Shown here: positions 2,683 through 64,000 of the stretch, one piece after another
Numbering within the stretch: position 1 is the first letter of the stretch
Layout: the number at the start of each line of letters is the position of its first letter
Source of the DNA: Candidatus Daviesbacteria bacterium
Lineage (GTDB): Bacteria; Patescibacteriota; Microgenomatia; Daviesbacterales; UBA10151
Assembly (NCBI GenBank): GCA_016186955.1
Contig: JACPKP010000009.1
Coordinates: 161,595 to 225,594, forward strand
Direction: 5' to 3'
Length of the DNA stretch: 64,000 nucleotides
The notes under the pieces: generated by a model
What the model saw: only the letters and a program-made list of their open reading frames with translations
What the model was told of the DNA's origin: nothing
Database searches by the model: none
Made by a program: the position numbers and the translations under genes

Positions 2683-3354
2683 TTATCTTACTATTTCCCC
2701 ATCTTTAATATGTATTATTTTTTTTGCATGTTTTGCGATATTATCTTCATGGGTAATCATAATAATTGTCTTACCTGTCTTATTCAATTTTTGAAAAAGT
2801 TCTACTATTTCACCTCCGCTTTTTGAGTCCAGGTTGCCGGTTGGTTCATCGGCTAAAATTATCTCAGGATTGGTGACTAATGCTCTGGCTATCGCAACCC
2901 GTTGCTGCTGTCCGCCTGAGAGTTGGTTGGGGTGGGAGTTTAGTTTTTCAGACAGTCCAACTTCAGCAATCATTTGTTGAGCTTTCTGTTCCCGTTCTTT
3001 TTTTGAAAATCCGCTGTATATAAGCGGTAAAGCAACATTTTGCAGAGTGCTTGTTCTCGGGAGTAGGTTAAAATTTTGGAAAACAAAACCGATTTTTTGA
3101 TTCCTTAGTTTGGCTAGGGTATCCTGATTTGAGTTTGTAGTATCTTGCCCTTCAAGATTATAGGAACCGGAAGTAGGCCTGTCTAAAAGCCCGATTATGT
3201 TTATAAGTGTTGATTTACCGGAACCTGATGCGCCGATTATTGCTAAAAATTCGCCTTTTTGGACTGATAAATTTATATTTTTTAAGGCCTGAAAACTAAC
3301 AGTTTCAGCTGCTTGATAAATCTTATTGACATTTATAAAGTGAATCAGGTTCAT
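2683..3354 (-). CDS. ABC transporter ATP-binding protein (MacB/LolD-type)
   Basis: Walker [13 protein letters not shown] signature [15 protein letters not shown], Walker [14 protein letters not shown]-loop ITHE. Confidence 0.9.
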
Positions 3355-6198: not shown

Positions 6199-7113
6199 GT
6201 GAACTGGAAACATCTTTTTTTGCCCCATTCGCAGACTCATAAAAAAGCCCATCTTATTTCAGCCCCGGCTTTGGCTGTTTACATAGCTATTTTTATTGTG
6301 TTGCAGATGGGTTTGCATCTTGTCTCAACAGTAAAGCCGGGGATTTTGGGAATTGCCTCAAATATAAGCCAACAGGAGCTGATAAAGTTAACAAACGCCA
6401 AGAGAGAGGCCTTGGGTTTGCCGCCTGTAATTGAAGACCCCAGGCTTGATGCAGCAGCTTTGGCCAAAGCACAAAACATGTTTGCCGAAAATTATTGGGC
6501 GCATTATTCCCCTTCCGGTAAAGACCCCTGGGGTTTTATTTTAGGGGCAGGTTACAGGTTTACAAATGCCGGTGAAAACTTAGCCAGGAATTTTTATAAC
6601 TCAAATGAAGTGGTGGATGCATGGATGGCATCACCAACGCATAGAGATAATATAATAAATTCGAAATACAGAAATATCGGAATGGCGGTTTTAGAGGGTA
6701 CCTTAAACGGCCAGCCGACTGTTTTAGTTGTCCAGGAGTTTGGTACACCGGTTGAGGCTATAGCACAGATCCCCAAGCCGCAGGTCAACCAGCCAACAAG
6801 CGAACCAATTTTACTTGCTGAAGCCCCAAAAGAGTCTACCCCGGCTGGTGTTTTTTCAGCCTCACAAAATCAACCCACACCTTTGGTAGTTAACAAAAAA
6901 ATTGCAAGTGGTGTATTGGTTGACCCGTATCTGCTAACAAAAAATATCGGGTTGGGTTTGTTGTTTTTGGTCGGTATACTAATAATTACTGATTTTTTTG
7001 TGCTCAGAAAAAGAGCAGTGGCCAGAGTTTCCTCAAGCCATTTCCCCCATCTTGCATTTTTGGCAGTTTTGACAAGCACACTAATTAATTCAAATATAGG
7101 TTCAATACTATGA
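6199..7113 (+). CDS. membrane-anchored CAP/SCP (YkwD-like) domain protein
   Basis: N-terminal TM; motifs ENYWAHYSPSG, GENLARNF, VVDAWMASPTHRDNII, YRNIGMAV typical of CAP/SCP-PR1 domain; Pro/Thr-rich linker; C-terminal TM. Confidence 0.6.
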   Translation: MNWKHLFLPHSQTHKKAHLISAPALAVYIAIFIVLQMGLHLVSTVKPGILGIASNISQQELIKLTNAKREALGLPPVIEDPRLDAAALAKAQNMFAENYWAHYSPSGKDPWGFILGAGYRFTNAGENLARNFYNSNEVVDAWMASPTHRDNIINSKYRNIGMAVLEGTLNGQPTVLVVQEFGTPVEAIAQIPKPQVNQPTSEPILLAEAPKESTPAGVFSASQNQPTPLVVNKKIASGVLVDPYLLTKNIGLGLLFLVGILIITDFFVLRKRAVARVSSSHFPHLAFLAVLTSTLINSNIGSIL

Positions 7114-19174: not shown

Positions 19175-20676
19175 AAAAAATTATTCGATGGGTTGGCAGC
19201 AATAAACAAGAGGCCTGCATATTCTTTATAATCCTTTTGGTCAGCGGATCTTTAAGATTTTACAAGATTGACCAATACATGTTTTTTCTGGGTGATGAAG
19301 GGAGGGATGCTTTAATAGTCAAAGAAATGCTTACAGAGCGCCATATCCCGCTTATTGGGCCACCTACCTCTATCGGAGATATGTATAACGGGCCACTATA
19401 CTATTACATGATGTCCGTACCAATGGCTATTTTTTGGCTTAACCCCGTTGCAGCAGCAGGTATGGTGGCTTTGGTTGGGACGCTTACAGTAGGATTAATT
19501 TATTATCTGGCGCGTGAATGGTTCGGGAAATCTGCAGCTGTAATTTCATCAGTCCTATATAGTTTATCGCCTGTAAATATCATCTATTCACATTCTTCGT
19601 GGAACCCAAACCCCGCACCCTTTTTTGCGCTGCTTGCAATAATTGGATTTTACCACATAAGAAAATATCAAGATTTTAGATGGTTACTTCTTTCGGGTTT
19701 GGCAGTTGCATTTGCCATCCAGATGCATTATTTATCCTTAATACTGTTACCCATTGCCGGAGCTTTATGGATTTATGAGTTAGCCAAAGCAAAAATAAAT
19801 AAAAAAAATTTGAAGAAATTCATTGTCTATACAATCCTTGCCGTGCTTCTGTTCGCAATACTCATGTCCCCCCCGGTTATATTTGATTTCCGGCATGGTT
19901 TTATGAATTTTCATGCTTTCTCAAAGTTCTTTTTTGGTGACAGGGAAACAACAGTCAACTTAAATATTTTCAATGCCCTAGGTAGGGTTTATCCTATTTA
20001 TACGCATAACCTTATTGAAAGATATATCAGTGGAGAAAATATTTTTACAAAAGGTTTTCTATCAATAGCCATCTTATTGCCTGTATTTTTTGCAGTTGGC
20101 AGAATATTTAAAAAGAAAATTTTAGAATGGCCAACACTTACCTTAGGAGTATGGCTGATCGGAGGTTTACTCGGATTATCTTTATACAAACAAACAATCT
20201 ATGATCATTATTTGGGATTTTTAAACCCGGCGCCATTTTTATTAATTGGCAGTTTAAGTAAAATATTGGCAGGAAAATATTTTAAATGGGGAATGATTAT
20301 TTTGGTAATAATTGTCAGTGCAATAAATATTGCCAGAAACCCGTTGTTTACCCCTCCCAATAATCAGCTTAAAAAGACGCAGGAGATTTCTAAAAATATT
20401 ATTGCTGAATCTGGGAATAAACCATTTAATTTTGCCCTGATTGCCGAACACAACTATGATGCTGCATACCAATATTACTTAGATTTATATGGGTATAAAC
20501 CCAAAAAAGTACCTTTTGAAATTACAGACCAGCTATTTGTTATTTGTGAAGATAAAATATGCAAACCCGTTGGTCATCCCAAATATGAAATAGCTGCTTT
20601 TGGTTGGAGTAAAATAGATTGGGAAAAAAATACAAATGGAGTTAAACTTTTTAAATTAAGCCATTTCCAGCTATGA
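19171..20676 (+). CDS. GT-C membrane glycosyltransferase, PMT/ArnT-like (GT39/GT83-type)
   Basis: LRFYKIDQYMFFLGDEGRDAL N-terminal motif; ~11 TM helices; C-terminal periplasmic domain; ATGA coupling to flanking GT2 genes. Confidence 0.75.
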   Translation: MKKIIRWVGSNKQEACIFFIILLVSGSLRFYKIDQYMFFLGDEGRDALIVKEMLTERHIPLIGPPTSIGDMYNGPLYYYMMSVPMAIFWLNPVAAAGMVALVGTLTVGLIYYLAREWFGKSAAVISSVLYSLSPVNIIYSHSSWNPNPAPFFALLAIIGFYHIRKYQDFRWLLLSGLAVAFAIQMHYLSLILLPIAGALWIYELAKAKINKKNLKKFIVYTILAVLLFAILMSPPVIFDFRHGFMNFHAFSKFFFGDRETTVNLNIFNALGRVYPIYTHNLIERYISGENIFTKGFLSIAILLPVFFAVGRIFKKKILEWPTLTLGVWLIGGLLGLSLYKQTIYDHYLGFLNPAPFLLIGSLSKILAGKYFKWGMIILVIIVSAINIARNPLFTPPNNQLKKTQEISKNIIAESGNKPFNFALIAEHNYDAAYQYYLDLYGYKPKKVPFEITDQLFVICEDKICKPVGHPKYEIAAFGWSKIDWEKNTNGVKLFKLSHFQL

Positions 20677-21422
20677 CACCAAAAGTATCTGTAATAGTAC
20701 CCTCATATAATGAAGCAGCTGATTTAAAAAGACAGGCGATTAATCAAATCGACGGATATCTGAAAATACAAAAATACCCGTATGAAGTGCTTATAGTAGA
20801 TGACGGGTCAACCAATAATACGGTTAGTGTAGTTGAAAAGGAGATAAAAAATAAAAAGAACTTTAAGCTGATTAAAAATCCACATGGGGGGAAGGCCATT
20901 ACGGTGATGATTGGGATGCTTGTGTCAAAAGGTGATATTGCACTGTTTACTGATATGGATCAGGCAACACCTATTTATGAAATTGAAAAATTACTGCCCA
21001 AATTTGACAGCGGTTTTGATATTGTAATCGGTTCAAGGCATGGCAGAAAAGGCGCATCGTTGAGCCGTAAACTTGCAGCATGGGGTTTTGCGTCACTTAG
21101 AAATATAATATTGAACCTGCCTTTATCGGATACACAGTGCGGATTTAAGTTATTTAACAGAAAATCTATCAATTTAATATTCCCTAAACTTTTAAATGAT
21201 TGGCAGGCCATGAAACAGGAGGGGGCAGCTGTCAACGCAGGGTTTGATGCTGAAGTTTTATTCATCGCCAAGAAGCAAAAATTAAAAATAGCAGAAGTAA
21301 ATGTTTTATGGCATCATGTCCAAAATGAGAAACAGGTGCAGATTATTAAGGATGGAATTGAAGCTATCAAAGATATGGTAAGGATTAGGTTAAGTGATGC
21401 TATGGGTAAATATGGAGGATGA
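20673..21422 (+). CDS. GT2 polyprenol-phosphate glycosyltransferase (DPM1-like)
   Basis: VSVIVPSYNEAADL...VDDGSTNNT...TDMDQ...QCGFK. Confidence 0.8.
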   Translation: MTPKVSVIVPSYNEAADLKRQAINQIDGYLKIQKYPYEVLIVDDGSTNNTVSVVEKEIKNKKNFKLIKNPHGGKAITVMIGMLVSKGDIALFTDMDQATPIYEIEKLLPKFDSGFDIVIGSRHGRKGASLSRKLAAWGFASLRNIILNLPLSDTQCGFKLFNRKSINLIFPKLLNDWQAMKQEGAAVNAGFDAEVLFIAKKQKLKIAEVNVLWHHVQNEKQVQIIKDGIEAIKDMVRIRLSDAMGKYGG

Positions 21423-22807
21423 AATTTTCAATTTTCAATTTTAAATTTTCAATTTTAAGTTATGATGTTTTGATTGTCGCGCTCCTCTGTCTGACTGTGC
21501 CGCTTTTTTTCTATAAACTGGGGCAGTCTTCACTGGTGTCATGGGATGAGGCATGGTACGCGGAGATCGCCGGGAATATTGTAAAAACCGGTGATTTTTT
21601 ACACCTTACTTTTAATGGCGGTTCCTATACAGATCACCCGCCTTTTGGTTTTTGGCTGATTGCCCTATCCTTTAAATTATTTGGCATAAATGAATTTTGG
21701 GCAAGGTTTGCCCCTGCCTTGATTGGTTTTTTGGGGGTTATTACTACTTATTTTTTAGGTCGGGAACTTTTTAGCAAAAGTGTGGGTTTTTTATCAGCTT
21801 TAGCATTAACTTCATCCCCCTGGTTTCTGTATAGATCAAGATCAGGAAACCTGGATTCTATATTAACAACATTTTTTATTTTAACTGTTTTATTCGCTTT
21901 GAAAGCCAGCAAAAATAAACATTTTTTAATGCCATTTTCCCTGAGCTTAGTTGCATTACTTCTGACAAAAACACTGGCGCCTTTAACCATTATCCCTGCG
22001 CTCATCATTATTTTTTGGAAAAATAAGCTAAAATTAAGAGACTTTAGAAATGCTCTGTTACTTATTTCCTCATTAATACTTGGATGGTTTTTCAGCCAAT
22101 ATTTTTATAAATCAGATTTTTTCAGTAGGTATTTTATGATTGGATTCCCCGGTGCGGAAGTAAAAACAGATTATTTGGATAACCTGAAACTTGCCAAGGA
22201 ATATTTACACAACGGGATAGGGAAGTGGTTTTGGCCGGGGATATTTGGGATTTTTGCAGGATTGTTTTTAAGGCAAAAAAGGTTTTATATCCTTTCAACT
22301 TTTTTCGTAATATTTATAACACCGTTCTTGTTTTCAAACAAAGGTCATATTTGGCACCTTATTCCGCTTCACCCTTTTATGATCCTTGCTTTTTTTGGTT
22401 TTTTTTATGTTGTTTTGGAAAAAATATGCAAGAAGAAAATAATTGTATCCCTGATAATTTTTGCAATCGGTTTATATTTCTCACTTTTACAAATGAGACA
22501 GATTTGGTATCAGTTTGTAGATATTCCTGCTTATGTTTCTGATGAAGCAATTTTATCAAGGGAAGCAGAAAAATATGCCCAGGATTTTTATATTGATGGT
22601 GGAGATTTCGGGCCCTCTGCAGTTTTTTATTCAGGTGGGAAACATGTCAGCAAAGTTTGGGAAGGGGGATTACCTGAGTTGTTTGAGACGCCAAAACCGT
22701 TTGTACTCATAACCCACCAGTGGAGATTGGATAAATACAAAATTGAAAAAAAAAGATATAAAGTGTTAAAATCCGACCGGGATAAAATTTTAGTTATAAA
22801 AATATGA
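21419..22807 (+). CDS. GT-C membrane glycosyltransferase, ArnT/PMT-like
   Basis: LVSWDEAWYAEIAGNIVKTGDFL...HPPFGFWLIALSFKLFG is the classic ArnT/PMT loop-1 motif (DE...). ATGA overlap with upstream GT2. 5' end contains heptanucleotide repeats. Confidence 0.8.
   Translation: MKFSIFNFKFSILSYDVLIVALLCLTVPLFFYKLGQSSLVSWDEAWYAEIAGNIVKTGDFLHLTFNGGSYTDHPPFGFWLIALSFKLFGINEFWARFAPALIGFLGVITTYFLGRELFSKSVGFLSALALTSSPWFLYRSRSGNLDSILTTFFILTVLFALKASKNKHFLMPFSLSLVALLLTKTLAPLTIIPALIIIFWKNKLKLRDFRNALLLISSLILGWFFSQYFYKSDFFSRYFMIGFPGAEVKTDYLDNLKLAKEYLHNGIGKWFWPGIFGIFAGLFLRQKRFYILSTFFVIFITPFLFSNKGHIWHLIPLHPFMILAFFGFFYVVLEKICKKKIIVSLIIFAIGLYFSLLQMRQIWYQFVDIPAYVSDEAILSREAEKYAQDFYIDGGDFGPSAVFYSGGKHVSKVWEGGLPELFETPKPFVLITHQWRLDKYKIEKKRYKVLKSDRDKILVIKI
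21423..21457 (+). repeat. 5 tandem copies of heptanucleotide AATTTTC/AATTTTA immediately after the start codon of GT-C gene
   Basis: aattttc aattttc aatttta aattttc aatttta at 21423-21457; encodes KFSIFNFKFSIL in frame; unit length 7 is not a multiple of 3. Confidence 0.9.
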
Positions 22808-60478: not shown

Positions 60479-62158
60479 ATGGGGTATCCTTTATGGTTTA
60501 AAAAACATGCTACAATTCCACTTCTTTTGTTGCTTTTAATTTTACTCGTCCCGACTTTTTGGAGATTGATTCGGCCCGGGATTTTCTCCATGCATGATTT
60601 CCATGTCTTTAGGCTGTATGAATATGATAAATGTGTTGCAGATCTGCAGATCCCCTGCAGATGGGCGCCTGATAGCGCTTATGAATATGGTGAACCGATG
60701 TTTAATTTTTATGCGCAGTTACCCTATGCTTTTGGTGAGTTTTTTAGGTTCTTGGGATTTTCTGTATTGGATTCAATAAAAGCCCTTTTTATCTCATCCC
60801 TGGTTTTGTCTGCTACAGCGATGTTTTTACTTGCCAAACAATTTTGGGGGAATAACTTGTCAGCGCTTATCTCCGCCCTGATTTATGTGTATGCGCCATA
60901 TCGGGCAGTTGATGTATGGGTTAGGGGAGCCTTACCGGAAGCTCTGGCATTTATTTTTTTCCCGTTGATAACCTATTTTTTTAATGATTATGTTTTCAAC
61001 AAAAATACCAGATCGCTATTTTTATTTGGCGTATCTTTAGCAGGATTAATTTTGACGCATAACCTTTCTGTTTTGATGTTTCTTGTTTTCTTTTCTTTTT
61101 GGGCGATTTATTTTTTTACGAAATACAAGGCTTGGAATTTATTGCCAAAATTTATACTTTTGGGGATATTGGTTTTTGGGTTAACAGCATTTTATACACT
61201 GCCGGTGGCTTTTGAAAGTAAATTAATAACACTCACAGAAACCACAAAAGGATATTATGATTTTAATCTTCATTTTGTAACCTTGAAACAGCTTTTAATC
61301 TCCAGGTATTGGGGTTATGGGGCCTCACAATGGGGGGAAGATGACAGGTTGAGCTTGTCGGTTGGCCAAATTCAATGGATTTTACCGGTTATAATTGCTG
61401 TTCTGGTTCTTATCAAAAAAAGGCAAAGACAATATCTTAGTTTTTTCTTTCTTTTAGGGCTTGGCTGGTTTATGCTGCTACTTACCCACAACAAGTCGGT
61501 CTTAATTTGGGATCTGGTTAAACCATTAAGTTTTGTCCAATTCCCATGGAGGTTTTTAGGGTCTGCAGTTTTTCTTTTCGCTTTTGCATCAGGAGCAATG
61601 TTTACATTATTTAAAAAAAGCTACCTTAATAAACTCCTTTTTTTGGTTGTTACAACATTGCTTATCAGCTTGAATACATCTTTTTTCTTTGAGGATTTAT
61701 GGTTTAAATTCGACGATAGAGAATTTTTCAGCGGTAAAAATTATGAGCAACAGGTTACCTCGGCAATACATGATTTTTGGCCAAAAACCGGCAGTAAAAT
61801 CCCCGCAAATTTTGCCCCCAAGGCAGGATTTTTCCTTGAAGGCATGGGCAGTGCAAAATTAATTGAAAAAAGGAGTAATAAACAAATTTATACTGTTGAT
61901 TCAAACCAAAATAGTGTGGTTCAATTCCCCCTGGTATATTTTCCCGGATGGGAAGGATTTTCGGATAATAAAAAAATTAACCTTAGCCCAAGCGGGGAAT
62001 ACGGTTTAGTTACTGTAAATACCAAACCTGCCGACAAAATTATAAATTTAAAATTTGTAGATACCCCGATTAGGGTGATAGGGAATTTTGTTTCAGCAGT
62101 ATCAGTGGGGGCGCTTGTTATATTCCTAATCTTTTTTAAACGCAAAAAAATTATATGA
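60479..62158 (+). CDS. YfhO-like polytopic GT-C membrane glycosyltransferase (standalone homolog of the C-terminal domain of 45948-48398)
   Basis: IFSMHDFHVFRLYEYDKCVADLQIPCRWAPDSAYEYGEPMFNFYAQLPY aligns with the fusion protein; ~13 TM helices plus C-terminal beta-rich domain. Confidence 0.6.
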   Translation: MGYPLWFKKHATIPLLLLLLILLVPTFWRLIRPGIFSMHDFHVFRLYEYDKCVADLQIPCRWAPDSAYEYGEPMFNFYAQLPYAFGEFFRFLGFSVLDSIKALFISSLVLSATAMFLLAKQFWGNNLSALISALIYVYAPYRAVDVWVRGALPEALAFIFFPLITYFFNDYVFNKNTRSLFLFGVSLAGLILTHNLSVLMFLVFFSFWAIYFFTKYKAWNLLPKFILLGILVFGLTAFYTLPVAFESKLITLTETTKGYYDFNLHFVTLKQLLISRYWGYGASQWGEDDRLSLSVGQIQWILPVIIAVLVLIKKRQRQYLSFFFLLGLGWFMLLLTHNKSVLIWDLVKPLSFVQFPWRFLGSAVFLFAFASGAMFTLFKKSYLNKLLFLVVTTLLISLNTSFFFEDLWFKFDDREFFSGKNYEQQVTSAIHDFWPKTGSKIPANFAPKAGFFLEGMGSAKLIEKRSNKQIYTVDSNQNSVVQFPLVYFPGWEGFSDNKKINLSPSGEYGLVTVNTKPADKIINLKFVDTPIRVIGNFVSAVSVGALVIFLIFFKRKKII

Positions 62159-63768
62159 AAAAATTGATTATATTTTTTTTAATTCTTGTATTGGCAGCTT
62201 TCTTAAGGTTTTATAAACTTAATGAATATCCGCCAAGTTTGAATTGGGATGAAGTAAGCATTGGATATAATGCGTATTCTATTTTAAAAACAGGCCGGGA
62301 TGAATGGGGACAGATATTGCCGCTTTCCTTTAGGGCATATGGGGATTATAAACTTCCCGGGTATATTTATCTGGATACAGTTTTTATCAGAAGCTTTGGA
62401 TTAAATGCATGGGGTGTCAGATTACCTTCGGCGGTCTTGGGGCTGGGGATTGTTGTGTTTATCTTTTTAACCGTTAAAAAATTAATAAATACTAATCTGG
62501 CGCTTTGGGCAATGTTTACCGCTGCAGTAACCCCCTGGCTTATTATCCTGTCAAGGATTGCACTGGAAGCAAACCTGGCGCTTTTTTTTACAACAGGCTC
62601 AATTTATTTTTTAATTTTAGGATTCAAAAGAAAATATTTTCTTCTTGCCTCTTCCTTTTTTTTAGGTTTATCACTTTTTTCTTATAACTCTTCAAGAGTG
62701 GTTGTGATCCCATTGGTGATAACAGCAGCGGTATTGTTCTGGAAAAAAATTAACAACATAAAAGTTGCACTATTTGCTCTGGGTATATTGGCAATTTTTT
62801 TTATCACAGCTTTTCCGCTGGCTTTACTTCAGGATTCTTCTGCACGGTATAAGTGGACTACTATATTGGATCAAGGTGCAGTTTTGAGAATCAATGAGTT
62901 ACGGGGGTCCGCTGCCCTGCCGCCTGTTTTAGATAAACTGATTTACAACAAAATTACTTATTTTATACCCCAGTCCTTGGGGAACTATTTTTCACATTTT
63001 AATCCCAACTTCTTATTTTTTAACGGGGGATCCAATTACCAATATTCTGTTCCCGGTTCCGGTCTTTTCCACTTAAGTTTATTGCCCTTTTTAATATTAG
63101 GGATATATCAGATTTTCCGGAAAAAAGAAAATTGGCAATTTTTTATCTTAGGATGGTTAATTATTGCCTTGGTTCCTGCTGCAATTACCAGGGATGCCCC
63201 CCATGCCCTTCGTGCGCTGCTGATGATCCCGCCTTTTTTAATTATTTCTGTACTCGGGGTGGGTTTTGTTACGAGTCATTTTAAACCTACTTACGTAAAA
63301 GCGCTGCTTGCAATTTTTACCATTGCGTTAGTCTTTCAGTCTGTACAGTTCTGGAAAAATTATACAGGGGATTATGTAAAAAATTATTCCTGGTCATGGC
63401 AATATGGTTACAGAGAGGCTGTTGACTTCGTCAACAAAGAAGCTAATCAATATGATCGGATTTACTTCACAAAAAAGTATGGGGAACCGCATGAATTTGT
63501 ATTGTTCTACCTTAAAATTGACCCCCAATTTTTTAGAGGCAGCGCTGTGCCGGTAAGATATAAAAAATCAGATTGGTACTGGGTGGATAGTTTTGATAAA
63601 TTTGAATTTATTAACGATTGGGAGATTAAAGGAAACGTAAAGTGTGAAACGAAAAGCGAAAAATGTTTAATGGTGACAAGTCCTGGGAATTATCCGGAAG
63701 GGTGGAAGTTTATTAAAAAAATTGATTTCCTTGATGGGAAACCTGCATTTGATATAGTAGAAATATGA
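62155..63768 (+). CDS. GT-C membrane glycosyltransferase, PMT/ArnT-like
   Basis: LRFYKLNEYPPSLNWDEVSIGYNAYSILKTGRDEWGQ motif. Confidence 0.75.
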   Translation: MKKLIIFFLILVLAAFLRFYKLNEYPPSLNWDEVSIGYNAYSILKTGRDEWGQILPLSFRAYGDYKLPGYIYLDTVFIRSFGLNAWGVRLPSAVLGLGIVVFIFLTVKKLINTNLALWAMFTAAVTPWLIILSRIALEANLALFFTTGSIYFLILGFKRKYFLLASSFFLGLSLFSYNSSRVVVIPLVITAAVLFWKKINNIKVALFALGILAIFFITAFPLALLQDSSARYKWTTILDQGAVLRINELRGSAALPPVLDKLIYNKITYFIPQSLGNYFSHFNPNFLFFNGGSNYQYSVPGSGLFHLSLLPFLILGIYQIFRKKENWQFFILGWLIIALVPAAITRDAPHALRALLMIPPFLIISVLGVGFVTSHFKPTYVKALLAIFTIALVFQSVQFWKNYTGDYVKNYSWSWQYGYREAVDFVNKEANQYDRIYFTKKYGEPHEFVLFYLKIDPQFFRGSAVPVRYKKSDWYWVDSFDKFEFINDWEIKGNVKCETKSEKCLMVTSPGNYPEGWKFIKKIDFLDGKPAFDIVEI

Positions 63769-64000
63769 TAAAAAAATTTCAAATTTCAAATTTCAAATTT
63801 CAAATTTTCTTGGTGGTTATAATTATTCTTGCGGCATCACTTCGCCTTTGGAACATAGCGTTAAACCCACCTGGGCTTACATGGGATGAGGCGGCAATTG
63901 GGTATAACGCTTATTCTTTGCTCAAAACCGGTAGGGATGAATATGGGCAGATCTTACCGCTAAATTTTAAATCTTTTGGTGATTATAAACCCGGAGTTTA
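63765..64000 (+). CDS. GT-C membrane glycosyltransferase, PMT/ArnT-like (5' partial, runs off window)
   Basis: ATG 63765 overlaps upstream stop (ATGA); ...LRLWNIALNPPGLTWDEAAIGYNAYSLLKTGRDEYGQ motif. Confidence 0.7.
   Translation, partial: MIKKFQISNFKFQIFLVVIIILAASLRLWNIALNPPGLTWDEAAIGYNAYSLLKTGRDEYGQILPLNFKSFGDYKPGV
63774..63809 (+). repeat. 4 tandem copies of heptanucleotide AAATTTC (+1 variant AAATTTTC) immediately after start codon of a GT-C gene
   Basis: aaatttc x4 then aaattttc at 63774-63809; encodes KFQISNFKFQIF in frame. Confidence 0.9.

Follow-up and report, generated by a model that had tools for sequence, protein, structure and literature searches.

Tandem heptanucleotide repeats lie at the 5' ends of two genes for glycosyltransferases of the GT-C fold in a stretch of 64,000 nt from Candidatus Daviesbacteria bacterium (contig JACPKP010000009.1 of assembly GCA_016186955.1, positions 161,595 to 225,594), which in its full length is referred to as the window. 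Array 1 occupies positions 63770-63809 and array 2 positions 21423-21456, both on the plus strand. The two arrays are heptanucleotide microsatellites of the general form (A2-3 T3-4 C)n and belong to a widespread, known class, that of the bacterial heptanucleotide long repeats: the 7-nt units are arranged head to tail, occur far above chance, and period 7 dominates. Both host genes are made frameshift-prone by these arrays. The interpretation to which we incline, with little more than even confidence, is that the slippage-prone repeat serves as a frameshift switch on surface glycosyltransferase paralogues, whereby unit-number variants in the population would turn single enzymes off and on, as in Candidatus Amesbacteria.

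The gene with array 1 starts with an ATG at 63765-63767, which overlaps the TGA (63766-63768) closing the upstream ORF (open reading frame; 62155-63768, plus strand). This ATGA junction (63765-63768), read from the sequence and the ORF table, couples the repeat-bearing gene to another GT-C paralogue of 537 aa, which matches Pfam PMT_2 (5.1e-10, 40.2 bits) and PMT (4.4e-8). Tandem Repeats Finder (TRF) delimits the core of array 1 at 63774-63807 with 4.9 copies of the unit AAATTTC, a period of 7 and 100% matches. The core begins 6 nt past the ATG and occupies codons 4-15 in frame; in full, the region reads ATG ATA, a run of seven A (63770-63776), four perfect AAATTTC units, AAATTTT and a C. Translation from the 63765 ATG yields MIKKFQISNFKFQIFLVVIIILAASLRLWN...WDEAAIGYNAYS, in which the repeat-bearing N-terminal stretch MIKKFQISNFKFQIF, including the repeat-encoded tail KKFQISNFKFQIF, is followed by the first membrane helix and the WDEAAIGYNAYS loop. 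The gene is cut by the window end after 78 codons (63765-64000, plus strand), and the 78-aa fragment has no Pfam match of its own. However, it is 52-63% identical to the N-termini of full-length PMT_2 proteins, the paralogues of locus L128, and its homologues carry PF02366/PF13231, which together identify it as the 5' part of a GT-C (PMT_2-like) gene; the full-length relatives in L128 and L064 match PMT_2. A WDE triplet at residues 39-41, in the first extracytoplasmic loop, which follows the first membrane helix, constitutes an acidic motif and is presumably catalytic, as we assume for the GT-C proteins of the window from knowledge of the family.

Array 2 is the counterpart of array 1 in the GT-C gene 21419-22807 (plus strand), the product of which matches PMT_2 (2.8e-20, 73.6 bits), PMT (1e-9) and STT3 (4.6e-7). 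The PMT_2 and PMT matches of this gene and of 62155-63768 lie above the Pfam gathering score. TRF reports a period of 7, 4.9 copies and 92% matches, the unit being AATTTTC with two AATTTTA variants; the array comprises codons 2-13. An ATGA overlap joins this gene to the preceding GT2 gene (20673-21422), and a WDE triplet is located at residues 42-44 in the first extracytoplasmic loop. Hence, the sequence-only reading, a reading of the bare letters that preceded this analysis, had described both arrangements correctly: a heptamer array at the gene start after an ATGA overlap, encoding the N-terminus of a GT-C paralogue. Its judgement that the arrays are no coincidence is also borne out, since a pattern of three units with up to three mismatches is expected 0.11 times in dinucleotide shuffles of the window, while composition-shuffled window sequence contained no period-7 array. 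A scan of the window for periods 4-12 retrieved one further array besides arrays 1 and 2, a weak one of period 4. Requiring three copies, periods 6-10 returned arrays 1 and 2 only, and period 5 returned four short arrays against 1.45 expected.

The peptide encoded by the repeat is best described as a dispensable lengthening, by about 10 residues, of the short cytoplasmic tail before the first membrane helix. Among 84 N-terminal homologues of the 63765 fragment, 83 possess a plain MKKF-type tail of about 4-20 residues before the first helix and no array, the sole exception being P0040 (MKFSIFHSQFSIL...) with a decayed array. Likewise, an array is missing from all 120 best-matching homologues of the 21419 protein, which are 51-77% identical to it, and many of them feature a K-F-K-x-D motif at its position. 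Homologues devoid of the repeat are also devoid of the peptide, which is therefore dispensable and no conserved signal or anchor; even an orthologue with at least 90% identity lacks it. This answers the question raised by the sequence-only reading, whether the N-terminus is a cleaved signal, an anchor or dispensable; the observation that reading had named as counting against it, homologues without repeats that retain the same N-terminal peptide, was not encountered. Upon in-frame removal of three units, array 1 yields MIKKFQIFLVV... and array 2 MKFSILSYDVL..., both of which resemble normal N-termini of the family. Moreover, other paralogues in the window begin with ATGAAAAAAATT or TTGAAAAAAATTT, so that the seed of the unit, a stretch of A and then of T, is a normal gene beginning here.

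The arrangement recurs at the starts of other GT-C genes, as the sequence-only reading had supposed from the two paralogues. Apart from the decayed case P0040, five further GT-C genes (L064, L127, L130, L128 and L129) harbour an (AAWTTTC)~4.5 array at the 5' end. The PMT_2 protein of L064 (Paceibacterota; minus strand, ATG at reverse-complement position 6277) begins with MKFSIFNFQFSIQK..., whereas the other four loci were recovered from JGI metagenomes by a scan for at least 2.6 units followed by a GYNAY motif 85-115 nt on. L127 begins with MKKFQISNFKFQITK, and L130 is its close relative and possibly a strain variant, whose contig ends in the array; the PMT_2 protein of L128 begins with MKFSIFNFQFSINTEK, and L129 has a GTG start followed by NRKFQISNFKLQIN. 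In all four loci checked (L064, L127, L128 and L129) the array-bearing gene overlaps the long ORF before it by ATGA or GTGA, directly ahead of the array, which is in frame. L128 comprises a tandem row of five GT-C paralogues, in which the array resides on a different paralogue than the closest relative of the window gene. The recurrence at GT-C starts is attributed to the Lys-Phe seed together with the tolerance of the N-terminal tail. It was further noted that the upstream genes of L064 and L127 share their ending (...LVAYTL*) and may represent the same junction; of the junctions in L064, L127 (8126) and L132 (2501), one of the first two contains AATTTTC x4 and the other AAATTTC x4, and that of L132 contains no array. 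Besides GT-C genes, the array is present in type IV pilin-like genes of L069 (minus strand, start at reverse-complement position 552), L097 and L109, where it forms part of the prepilin leader, ahead of the G|F motif, as in MKISNFKFQISNSHKG|FTFIEL; a match to the N_methyl motif was obtained for the first two.

Because a 7-nt unit is no multiple of three, a change by one or two units truncates the enzyme. In simulations, changes of -2, -1, +1 and +2 units reduced the product to peptides of 36, 16, 43 and 23 aa for array 1, and of 3, 10, 10 and 17 aa for array 2, while changes of three units kept the frame at both. In terms of contingency loci, the arrays thus provide a repeat within an ORF, a non-triplet unit, and unit changes that toggle between full-length and truncated products in simulation, but no long uninterrupted tract, since they comprise 4.9 units and array 2 includes two variant units. 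The course of events may be pictured as follows: slippage at the Lys-Phe codons (AAA TTT) of the short tail before the first helix would have grown both arrays, which in the assembly are in frame and would be translated as the tail extension; gain or loss of one or two units would end translation after 3-43 codons, and three units would restore the frame. The arrays would then behave as contingency-type frameshift switches on single members of a large battery of surface-glycan enzymes. An in-frame TTG and GTG just 3' of array 1 (63810-63815, plus strand) are possible, so far unsupported, candidates for internal starts that could bypass the repeat; no Shine-Dalgarno motif is present upstream of them.

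Even tracts of about three units give rise to frame-broken GT-C alleles in nature by 7-nt slippage, as is evident from Candidatus Amesbacteria. A GT-C gene of this lineage contains an internal AAATTTC array in the loop before an ISPWHLHFSRG motif. On an ENA contig of 42.5 kb (L131) the array consists of n units, and the gene falls into two parts with products of 123 and 436 aa. A locus from another sample (L137), which shares this array, has n+1 units; both flanks are covered with 2 mismatches in 608 nt plus one 7-nt gap, and its product of 133 aa is the one that had been simulated beforehand. In a third locus (L133), 1065 nt of 100% identity are followed by n+2 units. An intact protein of 550 aa is encoded by the n+2 version, the commoner allele; 14 variants of its sequence, one of them KKU64799.1 of Amesbacteria GW2011_GWA1_47_16, are spread over many contigs. 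In addition, a second paralogue of L131 is split at an AAATTTC array of its own, where one unit more or two fewer would restore the frame, and a GT-C gene of L134 is split by duplication of GGAAATT. The loop between an LLxKExF helix and the (I/A)xPWxxHFSRG motif constitutes a hot spot of 7-nt repeats in GT-C proteins, at which three genes are split (L131 2377-4004 and 4001-5639; L134 2501-4106). Broken GT-C genes of L135 and L136 were not used, as they look like products of error-rich long-read assemblies.

For the window loci themselves, contig breaks are suggestive of unit-number alleles. All Logan contigs (k=31) from five runs, among them SRR12113424, SRR12113420, SRR12113384 and SRR12113430, break inside array 1 or array 2: L001 ends at 63800 within array 1, L002 and L003 end at 21451 and L004 at 21448 within array 2, and L125 and L126 start at 21428. 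Since both arrays are too short to loop a k=31 graph by themselves, a second sequence version must be present in the samples. In de Bruijn graph simulations, the end of L001 was exactly that of an allele with one unit fewer, though a C63801 variant gave the same end; for array 2, a gain of three units reproduced the left end exactly and the right end within 1 nt. Exact-protein look-ups around both arrays retrieved only Logan k=31 contigs ending in the arrays, and the 21419 protein itself was without a record. JGI metagenomes were scanned for alleles of array 1 by its exact flanks with a gap between them (GAAATATGAT N25-55 CTTGGTGGTTATAATT); there was no match, from which it follows that the source organism is not in that collection. 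The hypermutability proposed by the sequence-only reading is therefore plausible, given the three unit numbers in the Amesbacteria gene and the breaks in both arrays, but it is not demonstrated at the window locus.

Gain or loss of whole arrays is indicated by close homologues. P0206 (locus L132), a GT-C protein at least 90% identical to that of L064, keeps the ATGA junction without an array; the first ~25 codons of the two genes cannot be aligned, while their flanks are about 85-90% identical. Similarly, P0214, a pilin at least 90% identical to that of L069, has the ordinary leader MKNQRG and no array. Presence and absence between proteins of such identity imply that turnover is fast. On the other side stand instances of constancy: 22 contigs share an identical L069 leader, the L128 array does not differ between a JGI and an ENA assembly, and two Microcoleus species possess exactly four units at the same locus (L059 1547-1574, L123 2139-2166), with about five differing positions in the upstream 40 nt and a downstream protein of 98% identity.

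The array is not specific to GT-C genes. Scanning one genome per species for (AAWTTTC)4 returned at least 120 loci (L005-L124) in at least 120 species, and those listed span many lineages of Patescibacteria as well as Bacteroidales, Nitrospirae, Acidobacteria, Planctomycetes and cyanobacteria. Exactly four units are present in 104 of the 121 arrays among the matches listed, the longest having 14. The unit is free of stop codons in every sense frame, and its complement has TGA in all frames within 21 nt; consistent with this, arrays within ORFs are always found in the sense orientation at the loci listed. In Patescibacteria, (AAWTTTC)4 arrays reside in frame inside conserved genes resembling those for LeuRS, ArgRS, MurD, TrmD, LepA, TsaD, UvrC, RecJ, KsgA, GuaA, RlmN and Fmt, names that derive from recognisable motifs only (L032, L110, L067, L103, L098, L118, L058, L047, L044, L034, L070 and L051). 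They encode NFQFSIFNFQ or ISNFKFQISN; the frame-keeping jump in these genes amounts to ~30 nt. Furthermore, methyltransferase homologues of differing Patescibacteria lineages (50% identity) feature the array at the same site and in equal length (L010 4540-4567, L101 307-334), the one with AAATTTC and the other with AATTTTC units. Outside Patescibacteria, arrays mostly end 3-40 nt before a start codon, as in Bacteroidales and other groups (L011, L015, L074, L104, L106, L112), or are accompanied by an inverted copy a few tens of nt away, which forms an AT-rich hairpin in GC-rich genomes (Thermoanaerobaculia; L030, L106, L012, L099).

Period 7 is also prominent among the other repeats of these 120 loci, with 132 arrays compared to 17 of period 8, 5 of period 6, and 3, 2 and 1 for the remaining counts in the range of 4-12, although the sample is biased by the choice of loci for carrying a heptamer. 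The units include AAATTGG, AAATCTC and AATTACC, and some are GC-rich. Over-representation of heptanucleotide repeats in bacteria, a little-studied phenomenon, was described by Mrazek 2007, as cited in PMC4679880 and PMC4692102; one proposal relates the excess to the length of DNA held by the polymerase. In a search of the accessible literature library with the peptides and the DNA arrays, no bacterial paper on the (A2-3T3-4C) unit or the encoded peptides was found. A similar tail of ~40 nt after the array (AAACAAT..TTAATTTC..AATTTTAAAATTAAAAA) was observed in Moranbacteria, Paceibacterota and Doudnabacteria (L062 4117-4190 and 7398-7470, L088, L092, L072), which hints at a longer conserved element.

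Several facts weigh against a dedicated switch. The tracts are short, with 4-5 units compared to 8-38 in the proven heptanucleotide switches of Haemophilus (PMC2651432), and slippage in array 2 is lowered by its two interruptions. Not one of the seven independent 5' GT-C arrays is out of frame, which is however unsurprising if only about one allele in eight is broken, as in Amesbacteria. Essential genes, in which an array cannot have switching as its purpose, contain the same array in frame, and the same four units persist in the two Microcoleus species. In the 120 reference loci, no Patescibacteria array of at least four units splits a gene, the split genes that a search returned being spurious ORFs of GC-rich genomes only. 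The dominant allele in Amesbacteria is the intact one, and broken alleles could be mildly deleterious, or neutral in redundant paralogues. As to the window loci, a single-base variant can also break contigs, and no single allele gives both ends of array 2 exactly. These facts limit the claim of a frameshift switch but do not contradict it. The variation may be a selected contingency mechanism or mutational noise in redundant paralogues.

The same body of evidence bears on the possibility, to be taken seriously albeit with clearly less than even odds, that the array is a neutral slippage product, tolerated in an unconstrained N-terminal tail, ecologically stable and without any switching, the broken alleles then reflecting decay of paralogues. 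This would account for the in-frame arrays in the LeuRS-, ArgRS-, MurD-, TrmD-, LepA-, TsaD-, UvrC- and RecJ-like genes and at all seven GT-C starts, for the constant unit number in the Microcoleus pair, in the L128 gene from two sources and in the pilin on 22 contigs, and for array 2, which with 92% matches is already decaying. Moreover, enrichment of repeats near protein termini is often due to structural tolerance alone (Lin and Kussell, PMC3315296). Nonetheless, three unit numbers in near-identical Amesbacteria DNA, the splitting of several GT-C paralogues at 7-nt repeats, the contig breaks at both arrays in every run, and the fast turnover between proteins of at least 90% identity are at odds with such stability.

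A cis-acting role of the G-free, T-rich heptamers, either as a landing pad for re-initiation after ATGA or as sites for S1- or cold-shock-type proteins with one heptamer each, appears unlikely. It would fit the arrays that precede start codons by 3-40 nt in Bacteroidales and other phyla and the ATGA or GTGA overlaps preceding all six GT-C arrays checked; CspB binds T-rich heptamer repeats, and the similarly placed TAACTGA repeats of Beggiatoaceae prompted the idea of S1 or Csp binding (PMC4679880). However, predicted folding of the region from -20 to +45 is ordinary at both window genes (-4.8 and -6.1 kcal/mol, compared to a mean of -7.6 with a standard deviation of 3.3 for 47 window starts), on which ground an unstructured start region as a translation aid was rejected, and removal of three units causes no rise in predicted structure. 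Homologues with the same overlap also work without arrays, and arrays deep in coding regions cannot serve initiation.

Still less credible is a functional N-terminal peptide, with KFQISNFKFQIF serving the enzyme as an indispensable signal, anchor or sorting tag. Both window arrays encode K-F-x-I-x-N-F in the same phase, and the basic, hydrophobic character of the peptide recalls the n-region of a signal anchor; yet it is absent from homologues, including those of at least 90% identity, it recurs in loops of unrelated cytoplasmic enzymes, and in prepilins the array lies in the leader ahead of G|F, the portion that prepilin peptidase cuts off. A mobile or recombining cassette, with gene conversion or a site-specific system as the means of exchange between GT-C paralogues, was suggested by the two related arrays within 64 kb and by the differing array-bearing paralogues in L128 and the window, but is highly improbable, because the units differ (AAATTTC and AATTTTC), the flanks share only the start codon, arrays occur in every kind of context in at least 120 species, and no inverted repeats, recombinase genes or conserved boundaries were noted, albeit without a systematic search. 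A cassette shared by the two window paralogues was rejected for the different units and unrelated flanks, and the recombining module common to paralogues that the sequence-only reading had envisaged is likewise not supported, given that 120 of 120 and 83 of 84 homologues have no array and that the repeat is common outside GT-C genes. A CodY half-site (AATTTTC) was also dropped from consideration, as CodY binds a palindrome in Firmicutes and not tandem copies.

Among known systems, the phase-variable glycosyltransferase genes of Haemophilus, Neisseria and Campylobacter are alike in the non-triplet repeat, its location in the 5' coding region, and the type of product, a surface-glycan enzyme. 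The window loci differ from them in their tracts of 4-5 units, one of which is interrupted, in the presence of the repeat in essential genes too, and in that switching is deduced from sequence; moreover, the host is a free-living or episymbiotic groundwater bacterium of the Patescibacteria, whereas the contingency loci are those of host-restricted pathogens. Shared features also include slippage that results in frameshift truncation, and several related enzymes each with a tract of its own (PMC2651432, PMC11130364). The hmw1A gene of H. influenzae PittAA contains (AATTTTG)14 within the ORF, its frameshift being attributed to tract length, and hmw promoters contain (TGAAAGA)13-38 (PMC2651432). 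Both AATTTTG and the window unit are AT-rich heptanucleotides of nearly the same sequence. However, hmw tracts are three to eight times longer, promoter tracts modulate transcription instead of the reading frame, and AATTTTG includes TGA in one frame, while AATTTTC is stop-free in all three sense frames.

With the heptanucleotide long repeats (Mrazek 2007, cyanobacterial short tandemly repeated repetitive sequences, the TAACTGA repeat of Beggiatoaceae, GGGAATC of Xanthomonas) the arrays share the dominance of period 7, the sporadic distribution across phyla, the frequent location just upstream of starts or in inverted pairs, and the variation in length among close relatives, as described in PMC4679880 and PMC4692102. 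The known families are described as mainly intergenic, whereas (A2-3T3-4C) is stop-free on the sense strand and often translated, also in conserved proteins of Patescibacteria. As regards the enzymes, the array-bearing genes resemble the PMT_2/GT39/ArnT-like GT-C fold family in their PMT_2/PMT matches, the short basic tail, the first helix and the WDE loop motif, but membership in this family says nothing on the repeat.

The surroundings of the arrays consist of at least nine PMT_2-type GT-C paralogues in the window (19171-63998), several of which are coupled by 4-nt start/stop overlaps, interspersed with GT2, polysaccharide flippase and nucleotide-sugar genes. The window is of Microgenomates-type Patescibacteria origin, its best protein matches being Daviesbacteria-like with 59-77% identity. 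Apart from this region, the spacer 2577-2690 on the minus strand, between the genes 2683-3354 and 1386-2576, contains degenerate inverted heptamers (CAAAAYT..., AGATTTN) and folds as a long imperfect hairpin (-18.3 kcal/mol, z = -3.2).

Beyond the window, it may tentatively be proposed, at rather less than even odds, that Patescibacteria use short AT-rich heptamers, free of stop codons in the sense and closed in the antisense direction, as true contingency loci, which would switch GT-C enzymes stochastically and perhaps modulate prepilins, giving a combinatorially variable surface for host attachment or phage escape. According to this proposal, 7-nt slippage, seeded at Lys-Phe codons of N-terminal tails and loops, would write NFQFSIF or KFQISNF insertions into proteins across the radiation, essential ones included.

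The heptamer tracts add a translated, stop-free member to the long-noted and unexplained excess of heptanucleotides in bacteria. In practice, short-k assemblies are interrupted and gene calls split at these tracts, and conserved proteins receive low-complexity peptides, which affects annotation and the assessment of genome completeness. Patescibacteria, or the candidate phyla radiation (CPR), are tiny, mostly episymbiotic bacteria that rely on pili and surface glycans in their contact with hosts and phages. Long tandem GT-C batteries are a feature of their genomes; if the tracts do switch single paralogues, these organisms would possess stochastic surface variation like that of mucosal pathogens.

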